Shown here: piece by piece, positions 9,721 to 63,172 of the stretch
Numbering within the stretch: the stretch's first letter is position 1
Layout of the letters: each line of letters begins with the position of its first letter
Origin: Firmicutes bacterium ADurb.Bin248
GTDB taxonomy: Bacteria; Bacillota; Clostridia; Christensenellales; CAG-138
DNA: 64,000 nt
Direction: 5' to 3'
Assembly: GCA_002069725.1 (NCBI GenBank)
Contig: MWBW01000001.1
Coordinates: forward strand, 56,583-120,582
The notes under the pieces: generated by a model
What the model saw: only the letters and a program-made list of their open reading frames with translations
Database searches by the model: none
Told to the model about the DNA's origin: nothing
Made by a program: the position numbers and the translations under genes

Positions 9721-10345
9721 GACAAAAGCCAAGGCGGAGCCCTTCTCGGTTTCCGTGGACGACATGCGGCGAAGCGACGCCTACACCATTGAGCATTCCG
9801 TGCCGGGCGGCGAATTGATGCGCAGGGCGGCGCTTGGCGTGTTTCACGCGGCGGACTGGCGCGGCGGCGTCGCCATCGTGTCCGGCGGCGGCAACAACGG
9901 CGGGGACGGCTACGCGCTCGCGTGCGTGCTCGCAAGGCACGGCGTGCGGCCCGTGGTCTACCGCGTGGGCGAGGGCGTCACGGACACAGCCCGCCCCTTC
10001 CTTGACGAGGCGCGGGAGCTTGGCGTGGACATACTCCCCTTCCGGGAGGACACCGACCTTTCCGGCTTCGACATGGTCGCGGACTGCATACTCGGCACGG
10101 GCTTCAAAGGCCCCGTGCGCGGCCTCGCGCGCGAGGCCATACGCGCAATCAACGCCTCGGGCGCGTACGTCGTGAGCGTGGACATCAACAGCGGCCTCGA
10201 CGGGGACACCGGCGCGGCGGAGCTCGCGGTCGCAAGCGATCTCACGGTTTCCATAGGTTTCTACAAGAAGGGCATGCTGACCTGCGCCGCGAAGAAATAT
10301 ATCGGCGCGCTCGTCAACGCGGACATCGGCATCACGAGAGCGTAG
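9701..10345 (+). CDS. NAD(P)H-hydrate epimerase (YjeF N-terminal domain)
   Basis: GGGNNGGDGYALA motif, 214 aa, RBS AGGAGG. Overlaps the end of the WYL gene by 20 nt. Confidence 0.8.
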   Translation: MKRSADKTKAKAEPFSVSVDDMRRSDAYTIEHSVPGGELMRRAALGVFHAADWRGGVAIVSGGGNNGGDGYALACVLARHGVRPVVYRVGEGVTDTARPFLDEARELGVDILPFREDTDLSGFDMVADCILGTGFKGPVRGLAREAIRAINASGAYVVSVDINSGLDGDTGAAELAVASDLTVSIGFYKKGMLTCAAKKYIGALVNADIGITRA

Positions 10346-10346
10346 G

Positions 10347-10365
10347 GGGCGGACGGCATCCGCCC
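10347..10365. repeat. GC hairpin related to family C (GGGCGGA-CGGCA-TCCGCCC)
   Basis: 7-bp stem immediately after the stop at 10345. Related to the hairpins at 20130-20148 and 60245-60263. Confidence 0.4.
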
Positions 10366-10483
10366 GCGGCGGGGATCATACCGGCAATCCGGAGGACCGC
10401 GCGCGCGGCCCGTTTTCGCCTTTCTTCCTCCCGCGTTCCGTCGGATGTATAATAGATCCATCTTCACAGCCAAGGAGGGTGCT

Positions 10484-13340: not shown

Positions 13341-13478
13341 AAGAGCGCTTCGGGGGTGGTGCGATTCCACACCGGCGGTGATGCGGCGTATGCCGACGAG
13401 CCCGCGAACCGGCCATGCGGCCGGCCGAGCCGGTGAGATCCCGGAGCCGACGGTACAGTCCGGATGGGAGAAGCGGGC
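13341..13478 (+). promoter_or_regulatory. FMN riboswitch (RFN element)
   Basis: CTTCGGGGGTGGTGCGATTCCACACCGGCGGT...GAGCCCGCGA...GCCGACGGTACAGTCCGGATGGGAGAAG matches conserved RFN core blocks. Lies upstream of an ECF riboflavin S-component. Confidence 0.85.
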
Positions 13479-13487
13479 TTTTTGCTG

Positions 13488-17059: not shown

Positions 17060-17881
17060 CTACGCCTTTTTTAAAAACTCCATGACGAGCTTTGAGAAAT
17101 AGGGCTTGGCGCGCTCCGCCGCCTCGAGCACCTCCTGCTCGGTGACGGGTTTGTCCGAAAGTCCGGCCGCATAGTTGCACAAAAGAGAGATGCCAAGCGT
17201 CCTTATGCCGCAGTGCGCGGCCGCGATGCTCTCGGGCACCGTGGACATGCCCACCGCGTCCCCGCCGAGCATGCGAAACGCCCGTATCTCCGCGTGCGAC
17301 TCGTACTGCGGGCCGAGCGCGTTGCAATATACGCCCTCGCGAAGCGCGAGGCCCATTTCCGCGGCGGCTTCCCTGGCCAGGGCGCGGTAGTCCTTGTTGA
17401 ATACGACGCCCACATCCGGGAAGCGCACGCCGAACGCGGGGATGTTCGGCCCCGCGAGCGGGCTTGCCTGCGACAGGTTCAGATAATCCGAAATCAGCAT
17501 CAGCTCGCCTATGCGAAAGTCCGTGTTGAGGATGCCCGCGGCGTTGGTGACGACCATGCTCCGCGCGCCCAGAAGCTTTGCGACGCGCACCGGGAAGGCG
17601 ACCTCGGCGGGCTCGTAGCCCTCGTAGCGGTGCATGCGTCCCTGCATGATCATGACGCGCTTGCCGCACAGCTCGCCGAGAACGAGCCTGCCCTTGTGGC
17701 CCGGCGCGGTCGAAGCGCGAAAGCCGGGGATTTCTTCGTAGGGAATATACGCCGCGCCCTCGGCCAAATCGCCGAGGAAACCCAGCCCTGAGCCGAGTAT
17801 CAGCAGGAATTCCGGCTCCAGCGGGGTTTTTTGGCGTATGGCCTGCGCCGCGCGCAGGTAATCGTCGTAGGTGTAGAACAT
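17060..17881 (-). CDS. punA: Purine nucleoside phosphorylase (PunA type)
   Basis: GHKGRLVLGEL..GRMHRYEGY motifs. RBS AAGGAGG precedes the ATG at 17881. The N-terminal 12 aa of the track ORF read through a repeat. Confidence 0.85.
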   Translation of the reverse strand: MFYTYDDYLRAAQAIRQKTPLEPEFLLILGSGLGFLGDLAEGAAYIPYEEIPGFRASTAPGHKGRLVLGELCGKRVMIMQGRMHRYEGYEPAEVAFPVRVAKLLGARSMVVTNAAGILNTDFRIGELMLISDYLNLSQASPLAGPNIPAFGVRFPDVGVVFNKDYRALAREAAAEMGLALREGVYCNALGPQYESHAEIRAFRMLGGDAVGMSTVPESIAAAHCGIRTLGISLLCNYAAGLSDKPVTEQEVLEAAERAKPYFSKLVMEFLKKA

Positions 17882-17900
17882 GCGCCGGCCTCCTTTGGGG

Positions 17901-17950
17901 CAATTGAAAATTGACAATTGACAATCAGGGAACGCCGCCGTCGGGCGGGA
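17901..17950 (+). repeat. Family-A repeat (heptamer head + GC hairpin)
   Basis: CAATTGAAAATTGACAATTGACAATC + AGGGAACGCCGCCGTCGGGCGGGA. Followed by the 10-bp hairpin GCGGGGCGGC-TTGC-GCCGCCCCGC (17958-17981). Confidence 0.7.
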
Positions 17951-17995
17951 AATTTTTGCGGGGCGGCTTGCGCCGCCCCGCTGCGTTCGTCGTTC

Positions 17996-18988
17996 TTACT
18001 GGCGGCCTATGGTCGCGACCATGACGGCCTTGATGGTGTGCATGCGGTTTTCCGCCTCGTCGAACACCTTGGATTGCGCGGAGCGGAACACTTCGTCCGA
18101 AACCTCCATCTCCCTGAGGCCGTACTTCTCGAAGATCTCGCGGCCCACGCTCGTTTCGAGGTCGTGGAAGCTCGGCAGGCAATGCAGGAAGATGCAATCC
18201 AGGTTGCCGGTTCTTTCCATGAGCGCCCTGTCGACGCGGTACGGCTCGAGAAGCCTGATGCGCTCCTCGAACTGCGCCTCCTCGCCCATGGATACCCACA
18301 CGTCGGAGTAGACCGCGTCCGCGCCCGCGACCGCTTCGAGGTCCTCGGAAAACTCGATCACGGCGCCGGTCGCTTTGGCGACCTCGCGCATTTCGGCGAT
18401 GAGTTTTTCCTCCGGGAACAGCGCCTTCGGCGCGACGCCCACGAAGTGCATGCCCATCTTTGCGCAGCCGATCATCAAAGCGTTGCCCATGTTGTTGCGC
18501 GCGTCGCCTACGAAGCACAGCTTCACCTTCGAGAGGGGTTTGTGGACGTGCTCCTCGATGGTCATGAAGTCCGCGAGTATCTGCGTGGGGTGGTCCACGT
18601 CGGTCAGGCCGTTCCACACGGGCACGCCCGAGTGCCTGGCGAGAAGCTCGACGTCGCTCTGCCTGTAGCCGCGGTATTCTATGCCGTCGTAGTAGCGGCC
18701 GAGCACCTTGGCGGTATCCTCGAGCGATTCCTTCTTGCCCATCTGCGAGTTCGAGAGGAAGGTGCAGCACGCGCCCTCGTCGAACGCCGCGACCTCGAAG
18801 GCGCAGCGCGTGCGCGTGGAGGTCTTTTCGAACAGCAGCACGATGTTGCGGCCCGCGAGCAGATCGCCCCGGATGCCCGCGCGCTTCTTGGCCTTGAGGT
18901 CGTGCGAAAGGTCGAGAAGGTAGCGGAGCTCTTCGGGGGTGAAGTCCTTGAGCGTGAGCAGGGAGCGTCCCTTCAGATTGACTGGCAT
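17996..18988 (-). CDS. argF: Ornithine carbamoyltransferase
   Basis: STRTR, HPTQ and HCLP motifs; 330 aa. Could be the catabolic (ArcB-type) enzyme given its neighbours. Confidence 0.9.
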
Positions 18989-19024
18989 ATGCTTTCTCCT
19001 TTTCTTATTCTGATTGACGGTAAG

Positions 19025-20101
19025 TCAACATTCGTCTCCCGTATACGCCTTTTCGACGTACGCGCTCGTGAAGGCGCGCAGCAGCGCGCCGTAGTCCGGC
19101 GTGAAGGAAAGCACGTCGCCGACCCGGTATTGCTCCCCCGCGCGCGTGAGGTCGACGATCAGGTGGTCCGAACTCGCGCCGAGGATATCGACGCCCGCGC
19201 CGCGCGGCGCGAGGCCGTCGGGCACGACGTCCTGCCGGCCGACGGCTAATATGCCGCGCAACATCTCGCCTCTGTCCTCGAACGAAACATATTCGCCGAA
19301 GGCATTCGGCCCGCTCCGGCCGATGGGCTTGCTGGGCTTGCGCTTGACTTCGACAAGCTGCGCTTCGAGCGTGAAGCAGTCAGGGTGGAACCCCTCCATC
19401 CGCGTTCCCGAGGCGGTTTCGTTGCCAAGAAGATACCCTTCCCCGATGCGGAGGCCGTTGACGCCTGAAGGCAGCTTCCCCGCGAGCAGCATGGGCAGCG
19501 TGCTCGAGTTGCCGCCCGAAACGAGCGGGATGGGAAGCTTGGTTTCGGCGCGGAGCCACTCCGCGATTTCAACGAGGCAGCCGAGGTTATCCGCATCCGG
19601 CAGTATGCCGCCGAAGCAAGTCAGGTTCACGCCCACGCCGTGGAGCTCGAGCATGTCCTCGCATGCGACGGCTTTGGCGAGCGCGAGGATTTCCGCGCGG
19701 TCCCGGCAGAACACGCCCTCGCGCAAATCGCCCATGTCGAGCATCAGCACGATCTTGTGCCGCCGTGCCTGACGCTTTGCCTGCGCGCCGAGCAGCCGCA
19801 CGGTCGAAATCTCGCTCTGCTGGCTCACCTCGCTGTGTGCGACGACCTGCGCCGCTTCGCACGGCTGCGCGACGCGCAGCAGGTAGCGCGGCTTTCGAGT
19901 TTTGAGCGAAGCGAGGTTTTGGAGGCGCGAGTCCGCGATATAATCCGCGCCGCTTTTTTCGATGACGGCCGCGACGAGCGCGTCCGCGCAGACGCACTTG
20001 GTCACGATCGCGCACGACGCGCCCGCGCCGTGGCAGAGGGTGACGACGCGCTCGACGTTATGCTTGAGCTTTTCCAAATCCGTAACGATTCTCGGATACA
20101 T
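19025..20101 (-). CDS. orr: Ornithine racemase (alanine-racemase-fold PLP enzyme)
   Basis: Starts MYPRIVTDLEKL with RBS GGAGGAAGC. Has a VTKC PLP-lysine region. Last gene of the ornithine degradation cluster. Confidence 0.75.
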   Translation of the reverse strand: MYPRIVTDLEKLKHNVERVVTLCHGAGASCAIVTKCVCADALVAAVIEKSGADYIADSRLQNLASLKTRKPRYLLRVAQPCEAAQVVAHSEVSQQSEISTVRLLGAQAKRQARRHKIVLMLDMGDLREGVFCRDRAEILALAKAVACEDMLELHGVGVNLTCFGGILPDADNLGCLVEIAEWLRAETKLPIPLVSGGNSSTLPMLLAGKLPSGVNGLRIGEGYLLGNETASGTRMEGFHPDCFTLEAQLVEVKRKPSKPIGRSGPNAFGEYVSFEDRGEMLRGILAVGRQDVVPDGLAPRGAGVDILGASSDHLIVDLTRAGEQYRVGDVLSFTPDYGALLRAFTSAYVEKAYTGDEC

Positions 20102-20176
20102 GCTTCCTCCGGTGGTTGGTTTCGGATGCGGGCGGATGATATCCGCCCCTACAGGGATTGTGGGTTCCCGTTCCCC

Positions 20177-20369
20177 GATTGTCAATGATCAATTGTCAAT
20201 TGTCAATTACCCCGTCCCCCGCCCGCAGGCGGGCGTTCCCTAGATTGTCAATTGTCAATTATCAATTATCCCGTCCCCGCCCGCAGGCGGACGTTCCCTT
20301 GATTGTCAATTGTCAATTATTCCGTCCCCGCTCGCAGGCGGACGTTCCCTAGATTGTCAATTGTCAATC
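20177..20369 (-). repeat. Family-A array: 3 full units plus a terminal head (periods 66, 58, 51 bp)
   Basis: GATTGTCAAT(T/G)...(heptamers) + CCGTCCCCGCCCGCAGGCGG(G/A)CGTTCCC, repeated at 20177, 20243 and 20301. The final head at 20352-20369 contains the stop of the upstream gene. Confidence 0.85.
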
Positions 20370-21727
20370 ACCCCAAGGCTTTTGCGCAGCAGCTTCAGCG
20401 CCGCCTCCGGATAATGCTTTGAGAGCACGCCGAGCGAGGCCATGATGTAATCGTCGTCAAACAGAAGCCGCGCTTCGCCGGGCTTGGGGTAGAGCATCAT
20501 GCCCGCGGAGTTGCAGTCCGCGATGGCGCGAAGGAGCGTTTCCCTGTGGGGCAGCCTTGTGAGCGCGCCGCCCGTGCCCACGATCGTTCGCACGGCGCTC
20601 AGATCCTTGCCCTCGGCGACGGTCTTTCGGCCCGACGGCGTGTAGATGTAGCGAAGCGCGCCCGCGTGGCGCTCCACGGCGCGGATGCCCGCCTCGCGGC
20701 AGAGGCGCGAGGCCAGCAAAAACTGTTCCGGCGTCTCCGGGATGGGCTTATAATCGGCCAGGACGGCCGCGACATCGAGCCTGAGCTCGTTTTTGAGCGC
20801 GTCGAGGCCGATCATGTCCACAACGTTCCTGGCGTTGATGTAAAGGCCGAGATCGCCCTCGACCGTGCGCTTGGCGAACGGCTCGGGATTGGTCAGAAGG
20901 ATCGCGATCTCCTCGGAGCCGCCGGTCACGCTGTGCACGTCCGTCGTCGCGCCGCCGATGTCTATGGCCACGAGATCGCCTATGTCGTCATAAAGAAGCT
21001 GAGCCGCCTCCATGACCGCGCCGGGCGTGGGGATGATGCTGCCCGTGACCATATCGCGGATGTGCTCCATGCCGGGCGCTTTGACGATGTGCTCCTCAAA
21101 AACCGCGTGTATGATTTTGCGCGCGGGCTCGATGTTCAGCTTATCGAGCCGGGGATAGACGTTTTCCACGACGCTGCACGGGATGCCCGCCGCGTCGAAT
21201 ATCTCCCGCACGGCGCGCTGGTTCTGGATGTTCCCCGCGTAGATGACCGGCGCGCGGACGCCGGAACCGGCCAAACGCTTCGCGTTGTAGAGCGCGGTTT
21301 CGCGCTCGCCGTAATCCGTGCCGCCCGCGAGGAGGATAAGGTTGGGCTTGACCGCGTCGATGTCCGCGAGGTCGTAATCGGTGAGCCTGCCCGCCGTCGC
21401 GAGCTTGATGATGGCGCCCGCGCCGAGCGCGGCGGCTTCTGCGGCACGGACGGTCATGTCGTACACGAGGCCGTGCACGCACATACGAAGGCCGCCCGCG
21501 GCGGAGCTGGTCGCGAGCATCTCGCCGAAGGTGATCCCGTCGCAGCCCATGCTGCGCGAAAGACCGTCTATCGCGCCCTGAAGGCCCGCGCGCACATCCC
21601 CCGCGAGCACGGAGGTCGGCGCGCAGCCCTGTCCCAAAAAGCGCGGCTCGCCCTCGTGAACGCCCGAGAAGGCGTTCACGAGGGTCGTGGTCGAGCCGAT
21701 TTCCGCTACGAGTACGTCGATATGCAT
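20357..21727 (-). CDS. MutL(GlmL)-like protein, putative aminomutase reactivase
   Basis: Starts MHIDVLVAEIGSTTT (ASKHA-like ATPase N-terminus). Position downstream of oraE matches ornithine clusters. C-terminus ...GVIDN-stop is encoded by repeat sequence. Confidence 0.7.
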   Translation of the reverse strand: MHIDVLVAEIGSTTTLVNAFSGVHEGEPRFLGQGCAPTSVLAGDVRAGLQGAIDGLSRSMGCDGITFGEMLATSSAAGGLRMCVHGLVYDMTVRAAEAAALGAGAIIKLATAGRLTDYDLADIDAVKPNLILLAGGTDYGERETALYNAKRLAGSGVRAPVIYAGNIQNQRAVREIFDAAGIPCSVVENVYPRLDKLNIEPARKIIHAVFEEHIVKAPGMEHIRDMVTGSIIPTPGAVMEAAQLLYDDIGDLVAIDIGGATTDVHSVTGGSEEIAILLTNPEPFAKRTVEGDLGLYINARNVVDMIGLDALKNELRLDVAAVLADYKPIPETPEQFLLASRLCREAGIRAVERHAGALRYIYTPSGRKTVAEGKDLSAVRTIVGTGGALTRLPHRETLLRAIADCNSAGMMLYPKPGEARLLFDDDYIMASLGVLSKHYPEAALKLLRKSLGVIDN

Positions 21728-21741
21728 GGTTCTTATTCCTA

Positions 21742-21866
21742 GATTGTCAATTGCCCCCACGGTTCGGGCCGATACGGCCCTCGGGCGACGCTCTCGGACA
21801 CTGGGCTGCGGCCGTCAGGATCGGCCCCTGCAGCCCGCCCGCGGCGGCGTTTTCCGATTGTCAATT
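21742..21866 (-). repeat. Two family-A fragments filling the oraE-reactivase spacer
   Basis: Head GATTGTCAATTG at 21742-21753. Hairpin CCCGCCCGCGGCGGCGTT + head GATTGTCAATTA at 21834-21866, overlapping the oraE stop. Confidence 0.6.
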
Positions 21867-24081
21867 ATTTGTTCGCTTCCAACTCCCTGCGGCGCTTCAC
21901 GAGGAAGGTCGCCACGTGGTTGCCGTGGCTGCCGCGGCCGAAGCCCTCGTCCGCGCCGTTGGCGCGCGCCTGGGCGGAGGCCACCTGCGTGCCGCCCGCG
22001 ACGAAAATAAGCTTGTCGCGCACGCCCATTTCGGTGGCGATGCGGTTGATCTTGCCGATGTTCTTATAGTGGATGTCGTCGTGGCTGATGATGGTGGAGG
22101 CCAGCATCGCGTCCGCGTTCAACTCTATGGCGGCGTTGACGAGCTTTTCGGGCGGCACGGAGGTCCCCAGGTAGTGCACCTCTATGCCGTATTTCTCGAT
22201 GCCGCCGTGCTTGATGTCGATGATCTCGCGAAGGCCCACGCTGTGCTCGTCCTCGCCCACGGTGCCGCACACGATCTTCATCGGGCGGCGCTCGATGTCC
22301 TTGCGGATTTCCTCGTCGCTCAATACGTCCGGCTCCTTGGGAATCACGAGCTTGTCGATCTCGATGGAGAAGGGCACCTTGCCCTTGATCTCGATGCGCG
22401 TGCCCTCGGCGCGGTGGCCGGTCTCGCGGGAAATGACCTCCACGTCCGTGAGGCCCATGCGCCTGCCGCACTCGATGGCCGCGGCCTCGGCGATGCCCTT
22501 TTCGGCGGGGAAGAACATCGTGAGCATCACGGTGCCGTCGGCGAGCCATTCCATTTCGGGGCGGATGAGCTTGGCGCCGGGCTGGGCGAATTCCTTGACC
22601 TCGGCCATGCGCACGTTGCAGTTGTCCTCCTCGTCGAGCTCGTCGATATAGACGATTTTCTCGGGCTTTTCGAGCGTGCAGCCGCCGATGAGGTCGGAAG
22701 GATTGCTCGCGCCGTACTGCGCGACGTTGTTGCAGCCGTAGTGCGCGGTAACGGGCGCGCAGTAGTCCTCCGCGCGCTTGACGATGGTGCCCGCGCCTAT
22801 GCCGCCGTTGATCTTGCGCGCGATGCCGTCGCCGTTGCGCTCGGGGTACATGCCCGAGTCGACGAACATGCCCGCCTCGACCGCGGCGAAGTAGCCGCCG
22901 AGCTCCACGATCTCCTCCATGAAGAGCACCGCGCGCTCCTTGAGCTCGCGCGCCTTGTCCCTGAGATAGCCGTCCTTCTTGAGTTCGACCATCTCCATGA
23001 GGCCGTCCATGCCCACGAGCGCCTGCTTGGCGGTGTCGCACGCCTCGAGGTTGTAGATGTGCCAGGGCACGTTTCGGCCTTCGTCCGGCGTGATGGTGGA
23101 CTGTATGTCCGCGCTGGTCAGCTTGGAGATTACCATGTTCAACACGTGCGTCACCGTCGCCTCGCGCGTAGAGGATTCGATGTATTTCGTGTTCATCTGC
23201 GCGCGCATGCGGTACTCGTGGAACAGGTCGCGCAGCGCCACCGCGTAGGGCAGATCCTGATGGATGCACGGCCCCGGCGTCGCCGAGGGCGGCACGGTCG
23301 AGAGGCAGATGTTCTTTTTGGGCACGCCGACCTTCGCGGAGAAAATCGAGTTGATCGCGTGCTGCACCATCAGTTCCGGCATGACCTTCCAGGCGTCGCG
23401 CGCTGTGGCGTTGGCGTTGTGCGCGCCGTCGATCTGCGCCTGTTTCGCCCAGGCGATCAGGGTCTTTGATTCGCACGCGTCCACGAAGGAGCGGACCATG
23501 TTGATGTTGCGGTAAATGACGTTGTACTGCGGGTCCTGGTGGGCGCCGTTGACGCCCTCCTCGGCGAACATCACGGCGATGTCCGGCCCCGCCACGCCCG
23601 AAACGTAGCTGTGGTAGTTGATGGGGCGGCCGACCTCATCCTCGATCCGGTCGAGCGCCTTCCTCTGCGCGCGGACCTGCTTGCGCGTGACCGGCACGCC
23701 GCCCATGCCCTGCGGGGTACCCTCGATGAGGCCGTCGAAATGGCTCTGCCCTGCGGTGCGTATGACCATGATGTGGTCCGCGCCGTGGTGCGCCGCCATG
23801 CGCATGCGACGGATGTCGTCCTCGAAACGGCCCGAGGAGATCTCGGTCGTGATCACGGGCGAGGGCTGCGGGTCGATGTCCCCGAAATAGTGCGCGGGGG
23901 GCAGGGGCACGGAGTCCGCGAGCGGCTTGGTGCAATCCTGATATTCGAAGGGGCCCATGCGAAGCCCGGGCGCGGGCTCGCGCCACGTCCAGCCGCGCCT
24001 GCGGGGGCGGTAGTTCCCGAGGTCCTTGAGTATCTCGGCGACGTCGATGTTCTCGTTCGGGTCAAGCTTATATTCGCTCAT
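21865..24081 (-). CDS. oraE: D-ornithine 4,5-aminomutase, E (large, B12/PLP) subunit
   Basis: 738 aa. C-terminal B12-binding DxHxxG motif (GEDEHSVG). RBS GGGAGG. Confidence 0.9.
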   Translation of the reverse strand: MSEYKLDPNENIDVAEILKDLGNYRPRRRGWTWREPAPGLRMGPFEYQDCTKPLADSVPLPPAHYFGDIDPQPSPVITTEISSGRFEDDIRRMRMAAHHGADHIMVIRTAGQSHFDGLIEGTPQGMGGVPVTRKQVRAQRKALDRIEDEVGRPINYHSYVSGVAGPDIAVMFAEEGVNGAHQDPQYNVIYRNINMVRSFVDACESKTLIAWAKQAQIDGAHNANATARDAWKVMPELMVQHAINSIFSAKVGVPKKNICLSTVPPSATPGPCIHQDLPYAVALRDLFHEYRMRAQMNTKYIESSTREATVTHVLNMVISKLTSADIQSTITPDEGRNVPWHIYNLEACDTAKQALVGMDGLMEMVELKKDGYLRDKARELKERAVLFMEEIVELGGYFAAVEAGMFVDSGMYPERNGDGIARKINGGIGAGTIVKRAEDYCAPVTAHYGCNNVAQYGASNPSDLIGGCTLEKPEKIVYIDELDEEDNCNVRMAEVKEFAQPGAKLIRPEMEWLADGTVMLTMFFPAEKGIAEAAAIECGRRMGLTDVEVISRETGHRAEGTRIEIKGKVPFSIEIDKLVIPKEPDVLSDEEIRKDIERRPMKIVCGTVGEDEHSVGLREIIDIKHGGIEKYGIEVHYLGTSVPPEKLVNAAIELNADAMLASTIISHDDIHYKNIGKINRIATEMGVRDKLIFVAGGTQVASAQARANGADEGFGRGSHGNHVATFLVKRRRELEANK

Positions 24082-24093
24082 GTTCTGCCTCCC

Positions 24094-24444
24094 TCAAAAC
24101 GCGGCCGCGGCTTCGTCCCAAAGCCTGCCCTCGCACAATGCGAGTCCCGCGTCCCGTATGTCCAGCTTCTGCGCCCGCGCGAGCCGCAGCACCACGTTGC
24201 CCGCGCCGTGGGCGAGCAGGTTCCTTTCGATGCAGCCGTCCACGATCTGCTTCGCCTCGATGGAGGAGAAGCCCATGCGCAGCAGCACGCTGCGCTCGAT
24301 GGCGGGCGAGGTGTTCTCATAGCCCATTTTCAGCATGGGCTCTACGATCTGCCCCGCGAGCGCCCAGAAGCGCTCCCCGAGCTCCTTATCGCTCAGGTTC
24401 GCGAGGGGTGCGCGCCTTACTTGATAATCGTCCTCTCTCTTCAT
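24094..24444 (-). CDS. oraS: D-ornithine 4,5-aminomutase, S (small) subunit
   Basis: 116 aa, directly upstream of oraE. RBS AAGGAGA. Confidence 0.85.
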   Translation of the reverse strand: MKREDDYQVRRAPLANLSDKELGERFWALAGQIVEPMLKMGYENTSPAIERSVLLRMGFSSIEAKQIVDGCIERNLLAHGAGNVVLRLARAQKLDIRDAGLALCEGRLWDEAAAAF

Positions 24445-24454
24445 GGTGCTCTCC

Positions 24455-25858
24455 TTACTGGTTGGCCTCTATGGCCGCGCGTACGAACGCCTCGTCCGTC
24501 CTGGTTTCCTCGGCGAGGAAGGCGACGTCCGCGTCGGTCGGCGCGACTTTGAAGTTCGCGAGTGCGTTGCGGATCAAAGAACCGCGCAGGTGGCCGAGGT
24601 CGGCGTCGCGCGCTTTGATCAGGTTGGGATGCGCGGGCAGTATGATGCTCTTGCCCGGAACCTCCTCGGCGGGGTCGCCGAAGCGGATGTCTATGCCGTT
24701 TTTCCTCGCGAAGTCGAGCTGCGGGTTGATGTGCTTGCCCGCGCCCGTATATTCGGTCTCCTGCACGACGATGCACTGATCCGCGTCCATTTCCTGCGCG
24801 ATGGAGAACGCCGCCGCGAGCGACACGTTGCCCGCGGGCCCGCGCTCGAGCCCCTCGAGGGAGGCGAGCATCTCGGTGGTGTAGAACACCTCGCCCTGGC
24901 TGAGGGTGACGTAGCGCTCCATATAGCGCAGCGGGCGCGCCGCGCTCCTCGGCACGTCGCTCCTGTCCGGCCAGGTGGAAAACGGCATGCCGAAGCCCGT
25001 GTGGCCCGTCGTGAAGGACTTTCTGTTAAACTGCGTGTCGCTTGCCATGTGGAGGCCCGCGAGGTTCACGCTCGCGCCGATGACCGTGGCCTTGCAGCCG
25101 GCCTTGATGAGACCGCGCGCCGTGCCCGTGAGGTTGCCGCCGCCTGCGTTGGTGGCGACGACCGCGTCCGGATCGCGGCCGAACTTGGCGCGGAACTGCT
25201 CGGCGATTTCGTAGCCGAGCGTCTCCACGCCGACGACGCCGTAGGCGTTGTAGAGCGAGGCGTTGAAGTAGCCCGTATCCTCGAGCGCCCTGAGGAACAT
25301 GTAAAAGAGCTCGGGGCCGACCGTGAGCTGCACGACCTCCGCGCCGAAGGCCTCGCACTTCCTGGCTTTTTCGATGATTTCGGGCTGGCCGAGCTTATGC
25401 GAGTCGTAGCATTCCTGCATGACGATGCAGCGAAGGCCGCTCATGGCGCACACGCTGGCCACCGCCGCGCCGTAGTTGCCCGAGGTCGCAGCGATGGCGC
25501 CCTTGTAGCCCATCTTTTTGGCGGTGTAAATGCTCGTCGCCGCGCGGCGGGCCTTGAAGCTGCCCGAAGGGTTCGCGGCCTCGTCCTTGATGAAGATGCG
25601 CGCGCCCTTGCCCGCGGGGGCGAGCTTGCGCGCGAGGGCCGTGATGTTTTTGAGTTCGATCAGAGGCGTGTTGCCGATCGAGAAGCCGCTCTGGATGCGC
25701 CTGACCTCCTCGATGTTAAGGCCGGTGGAGGCGAGCATGCCCTCGTAATCGAAGGCGATCGAGCCGGATTCGAACTTCGCGTAATCCATGCCGACTGCCG
25801 TCTTCATGATTTCGCCCTTGCGGGCCATGACCGCTTCGTAGCTGTTGTCGCGCATCAC
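24455..25858 (-). CDS. ortB: 2-amino-4-ketopentanoate thiolase, beta (PLP) subunit
   Basis: Tryptophan-synthase-beta-fold PLP enzyme with SGSFKARRA lysine motif. Start is GTG 25858 or ATG 25855, overlapping the ortA stop. Confidence 0.85.
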   Translation of the reverse strand: MMRDNSYEAVMARKGEIMKTAVGMDYAKFESGSIAFDYEGMLASTGLNIEEVRRIQSGFSIGNTPLIELKNITALARKLAPAGKGARIFIKDEAANPSGSFKARRAATSIYTAKKMGYKGAIAATSGNYGAAVASVCAMSGLRCIVMQECYDSHKLGQPEIIEKARKCEAFGAEVVQLTVGPELFYMFLRALEDTGYFNASLYNAYGVVGVETLGYEIAEQFRAKFGRDPDAVVATNAGGGNLTGTARGLIKAGCKATVIGASVNLAGLHMASDTQFNRKSFTTGHTGFGMPFSTWPDRSDVPRSAARPLRYMERYVTLSQGEVFYTTEMLASLEGLERGPAGNVSLAAAFSIAQEMDADQCIVVQETEYTGAGKHINPQLDFARKNGIDIRFGDPAEEVPGKSIILPAHPNLIKARDADLGHLRGSLIRNALANFKVAPTDADVAFLAEETRTDEAFVRAAIEANQ

Positions 25859-26154
25859 CGCTCACCTCCGAACAAAATGTCGCGCACGTCGTCGCCGATT
25901 TTGAGTATCTCCGGCACGAAATCGCCGTAGCCGTGCCTGTGCTGCGGATCGACCTCGACGAGCGTGCCGCGAAGGCTGCGCTTTGTCCGGGTCGTGATCT
26001 CGACCTCGTCGCCGATCTCGGCGTCCTGCGTGAGGTAGCCCTTCGTCCACATCTCCAGAGGCACCCGACGGGTATCCTCCGGCACCTGCGGAGCGCGCTG
26101 CTCCGGCGTGAGCACGACGGTGTGCAGCAGCACCCAATCGCCTTTTTTAGCCAT
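25855..26154 (-). CDS. ortA: 2-amino-4-ketopentanoate thiolase, alpha subunit
   Basis: 99 aa (MAKKGDWVLLHTVVL...). RBS GGAGGG lies 6 nt before the ATG at 26154. Confidence 0.8.
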   Translation of the reverse strand: MAKKGDWVLLHTVVLTPEQRAPQVPEDTRRVPLEMWTKGYLTQDAEIGDEVEITTRTKRSLRGTLVEVDPQHRHGYGDFVPEILKIGDDVRDILFGGER

Positions 26155-26244
26155 GACCATCCCTCCGATTTTTTAATGATAAACCAATGATTGCGGGGGA
26201 GCGCCGGAAGGCCGAAGCCCGCCGGCGTCCCAATGATGCTCCGT

Positions 26245-27291
26245 TTATTTTTCGATCATGTCCCTCATGTCGCCCATGATGGCGTGGGGGACGGGCAGGT
26301 CGAGCATGGTCTTGAGGCCGGGCCTCGCGTTGATGACGTGCGGGATCATATTGACGCACATGGCGATGGTGCCTATGCCGCCGTCCACCTCGGGGGTGTT
26401 GGCCATGTTGATGTTCGGCGTGCCCTTGATGACGATGTAGTCGCCGGTCTGGGTGCCTTCCATCTCGGGCTCGATCTGCTGGGGATGGATGAGGTCGATG
26501 CGCTGCACGCCGTCCACATAGGCCTGCGCGGTCATGTTGACGCCGGCCACGTCGCCGGCCTTGGCGAAGCCGTAGGGGGACTTGCGATCCACGCCCGTCA
26601 CGATGGGCTTCATCTGCTGCTCGAATTTGTCGATCTTCCAGCCCATGGCTTCGGCGATCATGCCCGCGGACTCCGCGAAGCCCACGTGGCCCGAGAGATG
26701 GCCGTTCTTGCAGCCTTCCTCGAACTCTTTCACCGTGATGCCGATGCCCTGCTCCTTCATGACCAGCGGGCCGAAGGGCGAGAGGGAGTTGACGCGCTTG
26801 CACATCACGCTCTCGACGTCCGTCATGCAGCCGGAGAAGCAGATCGCCAAAAGATCCATCATCAGGCCGGGGTTGATGCCCGTGCCGAGCACCGTGACGC
26901 CGTTTTCCTTGGCGAGCCGGTCCATCTCGGCAGCGAGCTCGGGCTCCTGCGCCTTGGGGTAGCTCATCTCCTCCGCGATGGAGACGACGTTGATGCCCTG
27001 CTCGACGGCGTACTTGATCTTGGGGAACACGTCGCGCGTGAACGAGTCGGTCGCGATCACGCAGATGTCGGCCGCGCCCTTGTAAACGACCTTGGTGATG
27101 TCGGTGTGGATGAGCGCCTCGGGACGATCTCCGCGCTCGATGCCCAGCACCTCGTACATGCTCTTGCCCTCGTACTTGGGGTTCTGACGGCATACGCCCG
27201 TGATTTCGACGCCCTTTTTGCGGCAGAGCACCTCGGCGATGCCGCTGCCCATGGCCCCGAAGCCCCACATAGCTACCCTGATGTTGTTCAT
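26245..27291 (-). CDS. ord: 2,4-diaminopentanoate dehydrogenase
   Basis: N-terminal Rossmann motif (VAMWGFGAMGSG), dihydrodipicolinate-reductase-like fold, 348 aa. First gene of the cluster. RBS GGAGGAAG. Confidence 0.85.
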   Translation of the reverse strand: MNNIRVAMWGFGAMGSGIAEVLCRKKGVEITGVCRQNPKYEGKSMYEVLGIERGDRPEALIHTDITKVVYKGAADICVIATDSFTRDVFPKIKYAVEQGINVVSIAEEMSYPKAQEPELAAEMDRLAKENGVTVLGTGINPGLMMDLLAICFSGCMTDVESVMCKRVNSLSPFGPLVMKEQGIGITVKEFEEGCKNGHLSGHVGFAESAGMIAEAMGWKIDKFEQQMKPIVTGVDRKSPYGFAKAGDVAGVNMTAQAYVDGVQRIDLIHPQQIEPEMEGTQTGDYIVIKGTPNINMANTPEVDGGIGTIAMCVNMIPHVINARPGLKTMLDLPVPHAIMGDMRDMIEK

Positions 27292-27494
27292 GTTTCTTCC
27301 TCCGTCATGATGATGATTCTTATTGATTTTGCAGCGCCCTCATTATAACACGGCTACTGCATAAGGTGAACCGATTCATTGAAAATATGCATTATCGACA
27401 TTTCAACTATCGATACTTAGTGTACTATATGCCCGCGGAATCCGCAAGGGTCAAACGCATGTAAAACTTAAGCAAACGGCGTGGCGGACGAGGG

Positions 27495-27550
27495 CAATTG
27501 ACAATGGACAATGGACGATTGACAATCGGGAACGCCGCCTGCGGGCGGGG
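27495..27550 (+). repeat. Family-A repeat (variant head + GC hairpin)
   Basis: CAATTGACAATGGACAATGGACGATTGACAATC + GGGAACGCCGCCTGCGGGCGGGG. Confidence 0.75.
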
Positions 27551-27694
27551 GTTTCCCGTTCCTTTTATGCGCCGGGGACGGTTCCGCGTTTTTCCGGCGT
27601 CCCTGTTCCGGCGAAGCGGCATCTTCATCCTTTGCCCTGCTCATCCTCACGCGTGCAAAACCGTCCCCCGAGCGGCGAAGAACCTTTTGTTCCG

Positions 27695-27980
27695 CTCCGG
27701 GGACGGTTTTCGGTGAAAGAGGGTAGTGAAAGTCAAAGGCGGCCGCTGCCGCTTTTCGGAAGATGACCTGCCGGAAGCTGCCGAGAACCGTCGCCGACGC
27801 CCGAACAAACAGAGTTCCCCGCCCGCAGGCGGCGTTTTATGCTCCGGGGACGGCTCTCAGTAAAAGAGGGTGGTGAAAGTCAAAGGCGGTCGCTGCCGCT
27901 TTTCGGAAAATGACCTGCCGGAAACTGCCGAGAACCGGCGCTCGAAGGAAAAGAGTTCCCCGCCCGCAGGCGGCGTTTCT
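27695..27980 (+). repeat. Tandem duplication, 2 x about 147 bp, each unit ending in a family-A hairpin
   Basis: Units start CTCCGGGGACGG at 27695 and 27842. They share ...GTGAAAGTCAAAGGCGG(C/T)CGCTGCCGCTTTTCGGAA.ATGACCTGCCGGAA.CTGCCGAGAACCG...GTTCCCCGCCCGCAGGCGGCGTT. Confidence 0.8.
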
Positions 27981-28020
27981 TGTCCCCGATTGTCAATTGT
28001 CCATTGTCAATTGTCCATTG
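27955..28020 (-). repeat. Family-A repeat, inverted relative to 27495-27550
   Basis: GTTCCCCGCCCGCAGGCGGCGTT ... GATTGTCAATTGTCCATTGTCAATTGTCCATTG. The head contains the stop codon of the 28007..29374 gene. Confidence 0.75.
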
Positions 28021-30856: not shown

Positions 30857-31041
30857 CCGTATTAAATAACAACGCGCGGCGCTACTCCACAAAATAGCCC
30901 GCAGACGTTGGAAAAAGGAGGCCGTTCCAACCGCGCGGGCTCGCGGTGCGGCAGTGTGGAGACCTGCCGTAATGCGCGTCGTATCAATTTTGCGCGCGCG
31001 AGGCGTATTCCGCGGAGGCGGGTGCGCCGGAGCCCGGATGT

Positions 31042-32235
<1,194 letters not shown>

Positions 32236-32253: not shown

Positions 32254-32441
32254 CCGGGGATTGTCAAGGGGCCGCGGCCCCTTGACTTTCATTCCGGCTT
32301 TGACGACACGCGCGTCAAAACGGATGAAAGCCGTAGGCGTTCGTACCTTTCACGCTTTGCCGCTCGGAAATACCGCAGTATTTTGGGCAAAGCGTGCAGT
32401 CTAAAAAAAAGCGGCTTTGTCGCTTTTTTGAAAGCGAAGCG
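32254..32441 (+). repeat. Family-B structured repeat, copy 1
   Basis: GGGGATTGTCAAGGGGCCGCGGCCCCTTGAC... Shares four helices with the copies at 48087 and 53238. Lies between the msmX-like stop and a terminator. Confidence 0.75.
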
Positions 32442-33075: not shown

Positions 33076-34167
33076 ATGAAACTCGGCGTCGTCGGCTTGC
33101 CCAACGTGGGCAAATCTACACTGTTCAACGCCATCACGCGCGCGGGCGCGGCGGCGGCGAACTATCCTTTTTGCACCATAGAGCCCAACGTGGGCATCGT
33201 CGCCGTGCCGGACGAGCGGCTCGACGTGCTCGCGGCAATGTATTCCCCCGAGAAGTACACGCCCACGGCCATCGAGTTCGTGGACATCGCGGGCCTCGTC
33301 AGGGACGCGCACAAAGGCGAGGGCCTCGGCAACAAGTTCCTCTCGCACATACGCGAGGTGGACGCCGTCGTCCACGTCGTGCGCTGCTTCGAGGGCGGCA
33401 ACGTCGTGCACGTCGACGGCTCGGTGAGCCCCGCGCGGGATGTGGAAACCATCGAAATCGAGCTGATCTTCGCCGACCTCGAGACCGTCGAGCGCCGCGC
33501 GGAGCGCGCGAGGAAGGCCAGCAAGTCGGGCGACAAGGCCGTCGCCGCGGAGGCGGATTTTTACGAGGCCATCAAGGCCTGGCTCGAGGCGGGCAAGCCC
33601 GTGCGCACCATGCCCATGGACGAGAAGCAGGCGGAGTTCGCAAAAAGCCTGTTCCTTCTCACGACAAAGCCCGTCATCTATGTGGCCAACATCGCCGAGG
33701 GCGACATCGGCATGCCCGACAACGCGCATGTTCGCGCCGTAAAGCAGATCGCGGCCGCCGAGGGCGCGGAGGCCGTCGTCATTTGCGCCAGGGTCGAGGA
33801 GGAGATCGCCGAGCTTTCCCGCGAGGAGAAAGAGGCGTTCATCGAGGAGCTGGGCATAGGCGAGAGCGGCCTCGACAAGCTCGTGCGCGCGTGCTACAAG
33901 CTGCTCGGGCTTATCAGTTTCCTGACCGCGGGGCCTAAGGAGGTGCGCGCGTGGACCATAGAGCGCGGCACGAAGGCGCCGCAGGCCGCGGGCAAGATCC
34001 ACACGGACTTCGAGCGTGGCTTCATCCGCGCGGAAATCGTGCCGTTCGAAACGCTCAGGCAGTTCGGCTCCATGCAATCCTGCAAGGAGAAAGGGCTCGT
34101 GCGCAGCGAGGGCAAGGATTACGTCATGCAGGACGGCGACGTGACGCTGTTCCGGTTTAACGTGTAG
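33076..34167 (+). CDS. ychF: Redox-regulated ATPase YchF
   Basis: [10 protein letters not shown]-loop, a 363-aa OBG-family protein with a TGS-like C-terminus. Confidence 0.95.
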
Positions 34168-34168
34168 G

Positions 34169-34290
34169 GCAATTGACAATTGAAAATTGACAATTGACAA
34201 TCAGAGAACGCCGCCTGCGGGCGGGGCACGGAGCAATTGACAATTGAAAATTGACAATTGACAATCAGAGAACGCCGCCTGCGGGCGGGG
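34169..34290 (+). repeat. Family-A repeat, two tandem full units (period 64 bp)
   Basis: Twice: GCAATTGACAATTGAAAATTGACAATTGACAATCAGAGAACGCCGCCTGCGGGCGGGG. Starts 2 nt after the ychF stop. Confidence 0.9.
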
Positions 34291-39811: not shown

Positions 39812-39987
39812 TTCACCTCCTTGAAAATAAAATCCTTTGCCTAAGACAAAGGATGAAAGGACGCCGTATGCTTGCGTCGCGCTTCACCTCGGCGGGATAT
39901 TGAGCCGCAAAGCGGCACCTGCTGTCTTCGGCCTGCGGTATTTGATTTTCCACGGGGCAGTGTATCACACCGCCCCGCGGTTGTCAA
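39812..39987 (-). promoter_or_regulatory. rplJL promoter plus L10-leader-like attenuator
   Basis: Minus strand: TTGACA (39987-39982), 17-nt spacer, TACACT (39964-39959). The roughly 130-nt leader ends in hairpin ATCCTTTG-N7-CAAAGGAT + TTTTATTTT (39854-39823) just before the RBS. Confidence 0.55.
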
Positions 39988-48086: not shown

Positions 48087-48308
48087 GGGGATTGCCAAGG
48101 GGCCGCGCCCCTTTATTTTTATTCCGGCTTTGACGAACAAGGCGGATTGCCGCGCGGCGGCAAGAGGGGATTTCCTGGGGCACATGCGCGTCAAAACGGA
48201 TAAAAGCCGAAGGCTTTTGCACCCGTCGCGCTTTGGCGCCCGGAAACGCGCAGCGGTCCGGGCAAAGCGCGCAGCCTCAAAAAAGCGGCGGAGCCGGGTT
48301 TTTGAAAG
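48087..48308 (+). repeat. Family-B structured repeat, copy 2 (with a roughly 45-nt loop insertion)
   Basis: GGGGATTGCCAAGGGGCCGCGCCCC...TTTTATTCCGGCTTTGACG...CGTCAAAACGGATAAAAGCCG...CGCGCTTTGGCGCCCGG...CCGGGCAAAGCGCG... Confidence 0.75.
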
Positions 48309-53220: not shown

Positions 53221-53237
53221 AATCAATCGTTTCAATC

Positions 53238-53436
53238 CGGGGATCGTCAAGGGGCCGCGGCCCCTTGACTTTTGATCCGGCTTCGGCGGCATGTGCGCCG
53301 AAACGGACGAAAGCCGGAGTTTTTTGGTTCCGCCGCGCTTTGGTCCGCGGCGGAAGCGCCGCCCGGAAACGCGCGGCATTTCAGGCAAGAGCCTGCAGGC
53401 TCAAAGAAACGGCGAAACCGCCGCTTTGAAGGCGAA
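53238..53436 (+). repeat. Family-B structured repeat, copy 3
   Basis: GGGGATCGTCAAGGGGCCGCGGCCCCTTGAC...GGCTTCGGCG...CGCCGAAACGG... with compensatory changes relative to copies 1 and 2. Confidence 0.75.
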
Positions 53437-60199: not shown

Positions 60200-60375
60200 A
60201 CAACGGCGTTGGGGACGATCCCGTTTCTCCGCGGTGTGAAAGGCGGGCGCATGATATCCGCCCCTATAACGAAATATGCGCGAGCAAACAGTACCGTCCC
60301 GTTTACCCCGTGTAAGGGCGGCCCTGTGCGGCCGCCCGATACGGGACGCATCAATACTCCCAAAGGAGAAATTCC

Positions 60376-62476: not shown

Positions 62477-63172
62477 ATGACGTTCAAGCATAGATCGGGC
62501 GGCTCCGCCCTGCCGCGCGCGGCGGCTCTGCTGCTCGCGCTCCTGTTCCTTTTCGCCGGATGCGCGGGAAGCGGCGGGGCCGGCGGCACGCAGCCGCCCG
62601 CGCCGAGCGAAAGCGGTATCGACAGCGGCACGCAACCGCCCGCGCCGGGGCAAGGCGGCGCTGACGGCGGCGCGCAGTCGCCCGCCCCAAGTGAAAGCGG
62701 CGCGGACGGCGAGGTATCCGACAAGGCGCTCTTTGGCGATTTCACAGCCAAGGACACCGAAGGCAACGCCGTCACCAACGACATCTTCGCGGATTACGAC
62801 GTAACCATGGTCAACATCTGGGCCACGTTCTGCGGCTATTGCGTGCGGGAGATGCCCGCGCTCGAAGAACTCGACGAGGAGTATCGCGACCGCGGCTTCC
62901 AGATCGTGGGCGTCGTCGTCGACGCGACGGACCAGAAGGGCAACGTGGACGACGCGCTGCTCGCCGAGGCGCTGGACATCATCGCGCAAACCGGCGCGGA
63001 CTACACGCACATCGTCCCCTCGGCCGAAATGTTCGGCAAGTTCCTCAAGGGCGTGCGCTATCTGCCCACGACCGTGTTTGTCAACAGCAGGGGCGAAGCC
63101 ATAGGTTCCGCCTACGAGGGCGCTATGGAAAAGGAGGACTGGGCGAAAATCATCGAGGAAAAGCTCGGATAA
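62477..63172 (+). CDS. TlpA/ResA-like thiol-disulfide oxidoreductase lipoprotein
   Basis: Lipobox LFAGC; thioredoxin-fold WATFCGYC active site. Confidence 0.85.
   Translation: MTFKHRSGGSALPRAAALLLALLFLFAGCAGSGGAGGTQPPAPSESGIDSGTQPPAPGQGGADGGAQSPAPSESGADGEVSDKALFGDFTAKDTEGNAVTNDIFADYDVTMVNIWATFCGYCVREMPALEELDEEYRDRGFQIVGVVVDATDQKGNVDDALLAEALDIIAQTGADYTHIVPSAEMFGKFLKGVRYLPTTVFVNSRGEAIGSAYEGAMEKEDWAKIIEEKLG

Follow-up and report, generated by a model that had tools for sequence, protein, structure and literature searches.

A predicted BIME-like mosaic of two repeat families in the Or-4/orr spacer of a clostridial ornithine operon

The spacer between the Or-4 and orr genes of the ornithine operon in Firmicutes bacterium ADurb.Bin248 (Clostridia; Christensenellales) is filled with short repeats, which we analyzed within a 64,000-nt stretch of contig MWBW01000001.1 (positions 56,583 to 120,582; G+C, 63.7%). 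We refer to this whole stretch as the window and use its coordinates throughout. The gap is 255 bp long (20102-20356) and runs from the Or-4 stop codon (20357-20359) to the orr ATG (20099-20101). Judged from its sequence and that of its relatives, this spacer is very probably a cluster resembling the bacterial interspersed mosaic elements (BIMEs), made up of two lineage-specific repeat families and recently expanded. The gene map of the operon was drawn with NCBIfam profiles and places nine minus-strand genes around the gap: ord (26245-27291), ortA (25855-26160), ortB (24455-25858), oraS (24094-24444), oraE (21865-24081), Or-4 (20357-21727), orr (19025-20101), the ornithine carbamoyltransferase (OTC) gene (17996-18988), and the purine-nucleoside phosphorylase (PNP) gene (17060-17884). 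The oraS gene had no NCBIfam match and was identified from the precomputed Pfam domain PF16552 (OAM_alpha) on the orthologous gene, and the ornithine racemase-like orr scored 413 bits against NF040742, under that family's 480-bit cut-off. A first-pass annotation of this DNA had called the gene upstream of the gap a reactivase; it matches NF040744 (662.8 bits), a GlmL-related ornithine degradation protein, and the reactivase function is read from that match. The coordinates, the 255-bp spacer, the periods of 66, 58, and 51 bp, and the motif strings given in that annotation were all found where it had placed them.

Read in the minus sense, four AT-rich heptamer heads, (AATTGAC)2-4, are interleaved with three GC hairpins and followed by a G-rich tail, a repetitive extragenic palindromic (REP) element, and the orr ribosome-binding site (RBS). 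All features of the gap described here lie on the minus strand, and the four heads and three hairpin modules share one orientation, making them direct repeats. Head 1, GA-TTGACAA-TTGACAA-TC (20352-20369), overlaps the end of Or-4. The Or-4 frame enters it (…GGG GTG ATT GAC AAT TGA), and the run encodes the last four Or-4 codons (V-I-D-N) and the TGA stop (20357-20371), which sits at -11 from the head start, within the second heptamer. The earlier description of an intercistronic array therefore holds for the gap as a whole but not for this first run, and its order of a stop followed by heptamers has to be revised. Hairpin module 1 (TAGGGAACGTCCGCCTGCGAGCGGGGACGGA, 20321-20351; -10.1 kcal/mol, z -0.34) has a stem weakened by a G-to-A change. 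It is followed by the two-unit head 2, ATAA-TTGACAA-TTGACAA-TC (20301-20320), hairpin module 2 (AAGGGAACGTCCGCCTGCGGGCGGGGACGGG, 20270-20300; -13.0 kcal/mol, z -1.3), the three-unit head 3, ATAA-TTGATAA-TTGACAA-TTGACAA-TC (20243-20269), and hairpin module 3 (TAGGGAACGCCCGCCTGCGGGCGGGGGACGGGG, 20210-20242; -16.2 kcal/mol, z -0.87). The terminal head 4 has four units, TAA-TTGACAA-TTGACAA-TTGATCA-TTGACAA-TC (20177-20209), and is common to the related species L024 (L numbers designate the contigs used for comparison). The G-rich tail (20153-20176), GGGGAAC-GGGAACC-CACAATCCCT, consists of two G-rich heptamers and a -10-like CACAAT; read whole it is GGGGAACGGGAACCCACAATCCCT, and its first part is likewise common to L024. 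In L045 (603-640) and L046 (12888-12925), a run of (GGGGAAC)x3.5 directly follows a head, and the tail in the window corresponds to two such units. The REP-like palindrome, which we call family C, is GTAG-GGGCGGAT-ATC-ATCCGCCC-GC (20128-20152; -14.9 kcal/mol, z -2.64), or GTAGGGGCGGATATCATCCGCCCGC in the mRNA sense, with an unpaired GTAG (20152-20149), an 8-bp stem, and a 3-nt loop. The last 26 nt before the ATG (20102-20127) are ancestral spacer, kept in all relatives, with the orr RBS GGAGGA at 20105-20110.

Shuffle controls and six identical assemblies rule out chance and assembly artefact as sources of this pattern. The hairpin pattern CCGTCCCCGCCCGCAGGCGGRCGTTCCC gave three matches, with 0, 1, and 3 mismatches, compared to none in shuffled sequence, and the two-heptamer pattern gave 50 matches in the window against 0.14 expected. 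On the plus strand the heptamer runs start at 20178, 20244, 20302, and 20353, from which the periods of 66, 58, and 51 bp follow, and Tandem Repeats Finder reported a period of 51, 3.2 copies, and a score of 263 for the gap. The palindrome GCGGGCGGATGATATCCGCCCCT at 20128-20150 has a second copy, with one mismatch, at 60243. The 255-bp gap is identical across six independently assembled contigs from different projects (L001, L003, L004, L006, L007, and L055), one of which is possibly the source of the window. Assemblies of this population derive from anaerobic-digester samples such as ERZ795030, ERZ795058, and JGI Ga0116159-61. A CRISPR array was also considered and rejected, given that both alternating parts are repeats, that there are no unique spacers, and that the flanking genes encode ornithine-pathway enzymes. 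Rfam covariance models run over the whole window gave no gathering-threshold match in the gap, and the best match of a permissive Rfam search of the gap was a chance microRNA match (E = 0.81).

The head and hairpin together form a dispersed repeat, family A, in which a head of two to five tandem AATTGAC units ends in AATC and leads into RGGGAACG and then a minimal GC hairpin (CCGCC-NGCG-GGCGG); the hairpin consensus is RGGGAACG-CCGCC-NGCG-GGCGG-GG. The double-heptamer motif is present at about 13 loci in the 64-kb window. Public genomes and metagenomes scanned for the head-hairpin junction returned 38 stretches, and copies of family A were found in a few related metagenome-assembled genomes (MAGs; Clostridia bacterium, Christensenellales bacterium, and 'uncultured Clostridium') and in anaerobic-digester metagenomes. 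Matches from a Verrucomicrobia MAG and from soil and other metagenomes (L015, L032, L044, L050, L051, and L052) consisted only of TTGACAATTGACAATC-N-GAACG without the hairpin and were left out as chance matches. The same junction scan of a viral contig collection returned 0 matches, and a search of the full-text literature for the heptamer strings found no paper. Four units are the commonest head size, seen in 30 of the 58 nonredundant heads, with two units in 10, three in 14, and five in 4. The head is succeeded either by the family hairpin or, where genes converge, by an ordinary terminator with a U tail. The hairpin stem is near-invariant (CCGCC/GGCGG) and shows only register shifts, so its covariation is of little informative value. 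CGTC occurs in about 4 of 48 aligned units; units 1 and 2 of the array read ACGTC-CGCC, compared to the family consensus ACGCC-GCC.

Heads of family A are concentrated at the ends of genes. Once seven array-internal heads are subtracted, the 58 heads represent about 51 independent loci, and in 39 of these (~76%) the head is found between -18 and +14 nt from the stop of a co-oriented, gene-like open reading frame (ORF), whereas a null model in which intergenic position and orientation are random predicts 4-8% (p below 1e-30). The element itself provides the stop in 24 of the 39 loci, as a TGA inside the head in 15 and as a TAA formed with the leading AA of the head in 9. The other 15 stops are located 1-14 nt upstream of the head, and 6 of these 15 read TGAC followed by a G-run, which hints at a TGAC/TTGAC target. 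With the forward strand of family A taken as the one reading GGG-YAA-(TTGACAA)n-TC, every frame of a head's forward strand meets a TGA within 21 nt, and the reverse strand has no stop at all. Because of this three-frame TGA, insertion of an element into the final codons of a gene terminates the protein immediately, as is the case for Or-4. Since only the forward orientation closes the disrupted frame straight away, the orientation bias of the heads can be accounted for without invoking a function. The heads of the window divide roughly 6 to 7 across the two strands, following gene orientation, which is weak evidence against an IS200/IS605-like single-strand transposition. We identified no target-site duplication or parent insertion sequence that would mark the repeat as a miniature inverted-repeat transposable element, and the heads of the array are direct repeats; inverted head pairs occur elsewhere (7771/7947, 27492/27989, 44335/44494, and L035).

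Further copies are found within and beside the operon. A single family A unit lies between the OTC and PNP genes (17901-17972), antisense to the operon, and its hairpin is followed by a T-run that scores as a plus-strand terminator; the related species (L016/L024) has the same antisense unit at its orthologous site, followed there by ~118 nt of additional sequence. Upstream of ord, inverted heads with hairpins (27492-27553 and 27955-28020) enclose ~460 nt that contain two ~101-nt direct repeats (27694-27794 and 27841-27941), 91% identical. At 19012-19028 in the minus sense, the orr stop falls inside the T-TGA-C of a near-palindrome, TTGAC-TTACC-GTCAA-TC, kept in the window, L024, and L026, and this may be a head that has decayed or else a site of operator type lying upstream of the OTC gene.

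At the level of sequence, family C is a GTAG-tagged REP-like palindrome. Related DNA contains 28 distinct variants with the same layout and stems of 7-9 bp, in which the tag is GTAG, GCAG, or ATAG. The subfamilies differ by paired changes in the stem (GGGCGGAT, GGGACGAT, GGGCCGAT, and GGGCGGCC), and three of the seven scored stem pairs change on both sides, in 10 cells. Pairing was found in 99% of the stem cells compared to 42-59% with the partner slid, a difference that arises partly by construction given that copies were picked for having a stem. At least three clear copies are present in the 64 kb (10342, 20152, and 60267) and dozens in ~420 kb of related DNA. The GTAG of the REP doubles as the upstream stop codon in two cases, one being the Or-4 stop in L026 and the other at 10342-10345 of the window (TAG at 10343-10345), where a GTAG-type REP (10342-10367) terminates the upstream ORF. 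Two facing REPs, at 60243-60267 on the minus strand and at 60312-60340 on the plus strand (with a GTAA tag), lie downstream of a family A unit and resemble a dimer of the type called a REP doublet forming hairpins (REPIN).

Comparison with relatives indicates when the array was acquired. The array is missing from the same junction in five related species (six contigs; gaps of 11-70 nt) in which the operon order is otherwise identical. In a junction series built from the Orr homologues of related species, no element is present in L027 (77% Orr identity; 11-nt gap), L057 (77%; 19 nt), or L029 (68%; 20 nt). L026 (81%; 44 nt) has the REP only, its GTAG giving the TAG stop of Or-4, and L059 (77%; 69 nt) has unrelated sequence. 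L024 (82%; 70 nt) carries one four-unit head with a GGGGAACGGGAA tail, the head providing the TAA stop, and the window species has the full array in its 255-nt gap. The RBS-proximal 25 nt are kept in all relatives of the series, and the insertions therefore entered between the stop codon and the RBS. This comparison indicates an ancestral Or-4/orr gap of 11-20 nt, with the array having arisen in the lineage of the window species.

The array has also varied within the species. In the conspecific L002, the gap is 230 nt and has two hairpins; the first head has five units, the first hairpin module is missing, and the last head has one additional heptamer. Four further conspecific contigs end inside the array. 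A second array, of two 64-bp units that are 100% identical, follows the gene for a YchF-like GTPase (34167-34290), and the conspecific metagenome contig L040 (4824-4978) has three units of it, making this a second copy-number polymorphism. The oraE/Or-4 gap (21728-21864; 137 nt, minus sense) is a second mosaic in the ornithine operon: it starts with TAA|TTGACAATC and a family A hairpin, holds two REP-like palindromes, GCAGGGGCCGAT… and GGGCCGTATCGGCCC, and has a short head, GGGGGCAATTGACAATC, immediately ahead of the Or-4 RBS. This gap measures 15-52 nt in relatives, and in L057 it contains a short head alone, the TGA of which is the oraE stop. The lone short head of L057 is interrupted in the window species by a hairpin/REP-like block of ~110 nt, with TTGACAATC on either side. 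Modules thus keep being gained and lost at heads. We infer that growth occurred by unequal recombination or slippage between heads, or by the insertion of hairpin modules into heads, as the structure of the variants suggests. The palindrome CAATTG makes the heads nearly self-complementary.

We next consider what the array may do in the operon. A consensus scan of 20102-20369 for terminators found nothing terminator-like on the minus strand. Each hairpin of the array is followed by GGA(A/U)AAUUGAC, and an intrinsic terminator or attenuator is ruled out by the lack of a U-tract; co-transcription with the operon is therefore plausible. Taken singly, the hairpin modules (-10 to -16 kcal/mol, z -0.3 to -1.3) are ordinary for a GC-rich composition. 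The head-hairpin-head modules fold well because the palindromic CAATTG lets heads pair as 6-bp helices split by A-A mismatches; the first tested gave -22 kcal/mol (z -3.8) and the second -29 (z -4.9). The fold of the whole gap has a z score of -2.65 in the sense and -3.83 in the antisense direction, a signal that is not strand specific.

Taken as a whole, the gap is best explained, in our view with moderate confidence, as a mobile or expanding repeat mosaic transcribed together with the operon. The first-pass annotation had recognized a REP-type cluster, and the data bear this out: both components are dispersed, extragenic, hairpin-forming, and mostly oriented with the upstream gene, and family C is GTAG tagged. 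RNA polymerase would read through the array, given that no U-tailed hairpin is present. Neighboring heads would then pair around each GC hairpin, giving three long stem-loops with energies of about -22 to -29 kcal/mol, to which the REP would add a fourth structure. These stem-loops would replace the ancestral tight Or-4/orr junction and could remove any translational coupling. Most plausibly, the structures could impede 3'-to-5' decay or provide processing sites, and the ord-to-Or-4 and orr-OTC-PNP segments may then differ in mRNA lifetime. A regulatory role can be proposed at no higher level than analogy. A measurable RNA-barrier effect is a tentative possibility on sequence grounds and the foremost of the outcomes we weighed, the lack of any measurable effect is somewhat unlikely, a weak internal promoter effect is predicted to be unlikely, and protein binding at the DNA level or a G-quadruplex effect takes up the small remainder.

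Several points weigh against this expanding-repeat account. The effect of the array on the operon is something we infer entirely. When filled and empty orthologous gaps were compared, no clean junctions, element ends, or target-site duplications were identified. No transposase or REP-associated tyrosine transposase (RAYT) was found by Pfam among 20 proteins encoded next to the REP clusters of L017 and L033 and the window heads, all 20 having housekeeping or unrelated domains. The single hairpins are 5-bp GC stems no stabler than shuffled sequence and would thus be a weak exonuclease barrier, and the 31 hairpin stems examined for a G-U wobble bias, which would point to selection on the RNA, included 17 that were perfect and 12 with an outer G-G mismatch, with no excess of G-T, a comparison that carries little information. 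Lastly, heads persist at the same junctions in species ~18-23% apart in Orr protein (L016 and L024 compared to window 17901, L023 to 60163, L010 to 7771, and L057 to 21743). This persistence fits selective retention as well as it fits hot-spot reinsertion or homogenization, and a purely neutral reading is therefore not proven.

An adaptive alternative is that selection keeps the stem-loops as an intercistronic RNA module, which would stabilize the ord-to-Or-4 mRNA or attenuate read-through and so set the dosage of orr, OTC, and PNP relative to that of the aminomutase genes. AU-rich single-stranded tracts beside GC hairpins are a type of context in which RNase Y or RNase E may cut. The array lies in the sense orientation and its co-transcription is plausible without a terminator, the composite stem-loops are strong, the array is identical in six full-length assemblies, head-type elements occur at all four distal junctions of the operon, and heads are retained at orthologous junctions across species. 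We nevertheless regard such a module as quite unlikely. Five related species manage the same operon order without an array at this junction, the species is itself polymorphic for the number of units, the stem of unit 1 is weakened by a mutation, the single hairpins reach z scores of only -0.3 to -1.3, the wobble-pair signature of RNA-level selection was not found, and many unrelated gene ends carry the same element, among them convergent ends with terminators of their own. The proposal in the first-pass annotation that the array is a device setting differential expression is reasonable as an analogy, but as an evolved function it is not supported, given its absence from five relatives, its variable copy number (L002), its weakened unit, and its unremarkable hairpins.

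As a sequence-based alternative to a stabilizer or attenuator, an internal sigma-70-like promoter, which the first-pass annotation had not considered, is equally good. Here one or more heads would supply promoters for orr-OTC-PNP, and the REP would be a 5'-proximal stabilizing stem-loop. Any four-unit head reads TTGACA-N17-GACAAT, and the match in head 4 spans 20206 to 20178; head 4 also yields TTGACA-N17-CACAAT from 20185 to 20157, 56 nt upstream of the orr ATG. These two overlapping sigma-70-like sites (20157-20206), which are consensus matches only, both score 10/12 on the mRNA strand of the gap, compared to a shuffled mean of 0.7 over the whole 4.3-kb region. Among heads of at least four units, 30 of 34 score at least 10/12 with A2 and T6, and four units are the commonest size. 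In addition, a head lies directly upstream of orr in both the window species and L024, and the one antisense copy in the operon (17901) has a hairpin followed by a T-run terminator. In four-unit heads, the consensus is kept by units 1 and 4, which hold the -35 and -10, in 26 of 30 cases each, whereas unit 2, which falls in the spacer, departs from it in 22 of 30. That pattern is expected if the -35 and -10 matter and equally if the heads derive from a few master-copy subfamilies, and it is inflated because the head-detection rule required near-consensus edge units. The -10 (GACAAT/CACAAT) lacks the conserved first T, and since the likely ord promoter of this organism has a canonical TG-n-TATAAT (TTCACC-N17-TG-T-TATAAT at ~27340-27375, outside the inverted-head bracket), the -10 of the heads would be weak at best. 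Many heads also face convergent genes with terminators right after them and have no obvious promoter use. We therefore consider a portable promoter improbable.

Still broader is the suggestion that the family A unit is a domesticated or self-targeting gene-end cassette that specifically lands at stops or creates them, TTGAC itself containing TGA, and then reinitiates or reshapes downstream expression, which we hold to be distinctly improbable. In this view a portable TTGACA-N17-GACAAT promoter, an AU-rich site of RNase entry, or both would be provided by the 28-bp head, and a 5' or 3' protective stem by the hairpin. If this were true, one mobile module would wire about a quarter of the lineage's gene junctions, with the array of the ornithine operon as its multi-copy form tuning the output of orr-OTC-PNP, and the four-unit mode shared with Xanthomonas and Nostoc would point to a common cause unrelated to G-quadruplexes. 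The remaining alternative acts at the level of DNA, with heptads binding a protein or G-rich modules forming sense-strand G-quadruplexes, and with effects on supercoiling, roadblocking, or replication instead of mRNA decay. Possible protein models are the omega repressor, a ribbon-helix-helix protein that binds contiguous 7-bp heptads, and ring proteins reading period-7 RNA triplets, such as HutP. The strict 7-bp periodicity and well-defined head length agree with this idea, as do the four G-runs of at least three in units 2 and 3 (GGG-N13-GGG-C-GGGG-AC-GGG) and the in vitro G-quadruplexes of published heptamer arrays with a similar placement (PMC4692102). It is highly improbable, however, given that none of the loci examined links the element to a candidate binding protein, that the AT-rich heads cannot form a G-quadruplex, and that unit 1 lacks the required G-runs.

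The window contains other repeats and RNAs. A third intergenic repeat family (32254-32370, 48182-48246, and 53237-53353; ~65-110 nt, 62-83% identity) is unrelated to families A and C and had no Rfam match at the gathering threshold. Rfam matches above that threshold were a malK-I RNA (30868-31047, plus strand), a flavin mononucleotide (FMN) riboswitch (13342-13479, plus strand) upstream of a gene of the energy-coupling factor (ECF) transporter type, and a ribosomal protein L10 leader (39817-39949, minus strand). GC-rich tandem repeats are located at 62569-62711 (a 42-nt unit in 3.4 copies) and at the window end (63683-63995; units of 12, 24, or 36 nt in up to ~9 copies), the latter within an apparent ORF and probably encoding a repetitive low-complexity protein segment. 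In the strains L003 (8221-10658) and L008, PNP is shortened to 247 from 273 amino acids and is followed by a block with a serine recombinase, a relaxase, and a NikA-like gene, which looks like a mobile element integrated at the operon end.

The descriptive part alone provides a defined small-repeat system for Clostridia, a group without entries in the 2013 survey of REPs (PMC3733652). One junction displays a series from empty to REP only, to one head, to a two- or three-unit array, which is useful for studying how repeats originate and expand. The repeats of this system are the reason that contigs of its MAGs break at gene ends and that some spacers are long in otherwise tight operons, and annotators should be aware that many C termini and stop codons are repeat encoded. 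If heads were promoters or RNase entry sites, they would constitute a lineage-wide mechanism shaping operon stoichiometry, and this would bear on the four-unit, stop-adjacent preference of heptamer arrays in unrelated bacteria.

Among known systems, pneumococcal BOX elements are modular, with a variable number of tandem boxB units, and the Correia elements of Neisseria are co-transcribed, with promoter-like boxes at their ends, folds that are substrates of RNase III, true terminal inverted repeats, and a TA duplication. Both alter the expression of neighboring genes in some contexts. To our knowledge, their sequences and architectures are unrelated to those of the array, and neither has heptamer runs or targets stop codons. 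The REP and BIME clusters of Enterobacteria and Pseudomonas are closer, with the REPs between malE and malF of Escherichia coli being the model intercistronic case. They occur in high copy number and, like the repeats described here, are short GC-rich extragenic palindromes that form mosaics with other motifs, lie mostly downstream of ORFs, and vary in unit number between strains. The gap is such a mosaic, composed of heads, hairpin modules, a G-rich tail, and a REP, with two or three modules in conspecifics. BIME REPs alternate in orientation, however, whereas family A units are arranged head to tail. The family A hairpin is also only ~5 bp, without a GTAG or CGTC tag in most copies, and the AT-rich heptamer run is integral to each unit, unlike in BIMEs. 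REP and BIME clusters are co-transcribed, and roles in mRNA stabilization have been proposed for them (PMC2817692, PMC3733652).

Family C resembles the GTAG REPs, which are mobilized by the RAYT protein TnpA-REP, in its tag, its 8-9-bp stem, its compensatory subfamilies, its site after ORFs, and its TAG stop; no RAYT gene was seen in the window or in the short flanks of related contigs. GTAG REPs were described by Di Nocera et al. in 2013 as lying downstream of ORFs and often giving the TAG stop (PMC3733652), and that survey recorded them in Proteobacteria, Cyanobacteria, Chloroflexi, and the Planctomycetes-Verrucomicrobia-Chlamydiae (PVC) group, with Firmicutes and Clostridia not listed (PMC3733652).

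For the heads, the nearest counterparts are dispersed heptamer arrays. In Xanthomonas, (GGGAATC)n, and Nostoc, (GGGGAYT)n, 7-nt tandem runs of unknown function occupy ~100-200 intergenic loci (~180), most commonly as four units within 50 nt of or overlapping a stop codon (PMC4692102). They also occur inside operons (pecE-pecF) and at orthologous sites in sister species with varying lengths (PMC4692102), and Calothrix PCC 7601 has three heptamer repeat families (cited in PMC4692102). The heads match these arrays in their placement at ORF ends, their many loci, and their length variation at orthologous sites, and the GGGGAAC runs of L045 and L046 recall the G-rich arrays of Xanthomonas and Nostoc. 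The published G-rich heptamers form G-quadruplexes in vitro, which is how the authors explain the preference for four units (PMC4692102). The heads described here are 71% A+T with a single G per AATTGAC and cannot form such structures, yet they show the same four-unit mode, and, unlike the published arrays, they are coupled to a GC hairpin and give a three-frame TGA. Overall, this is a system of an ordinary kind, small repeats at gene ends, and what is new about it is the AT-rich run with a stop in all three frames, the coupling of that run to a mini-hairpin and to GTAG REPs, and the uncultured Clostridia host lineage.

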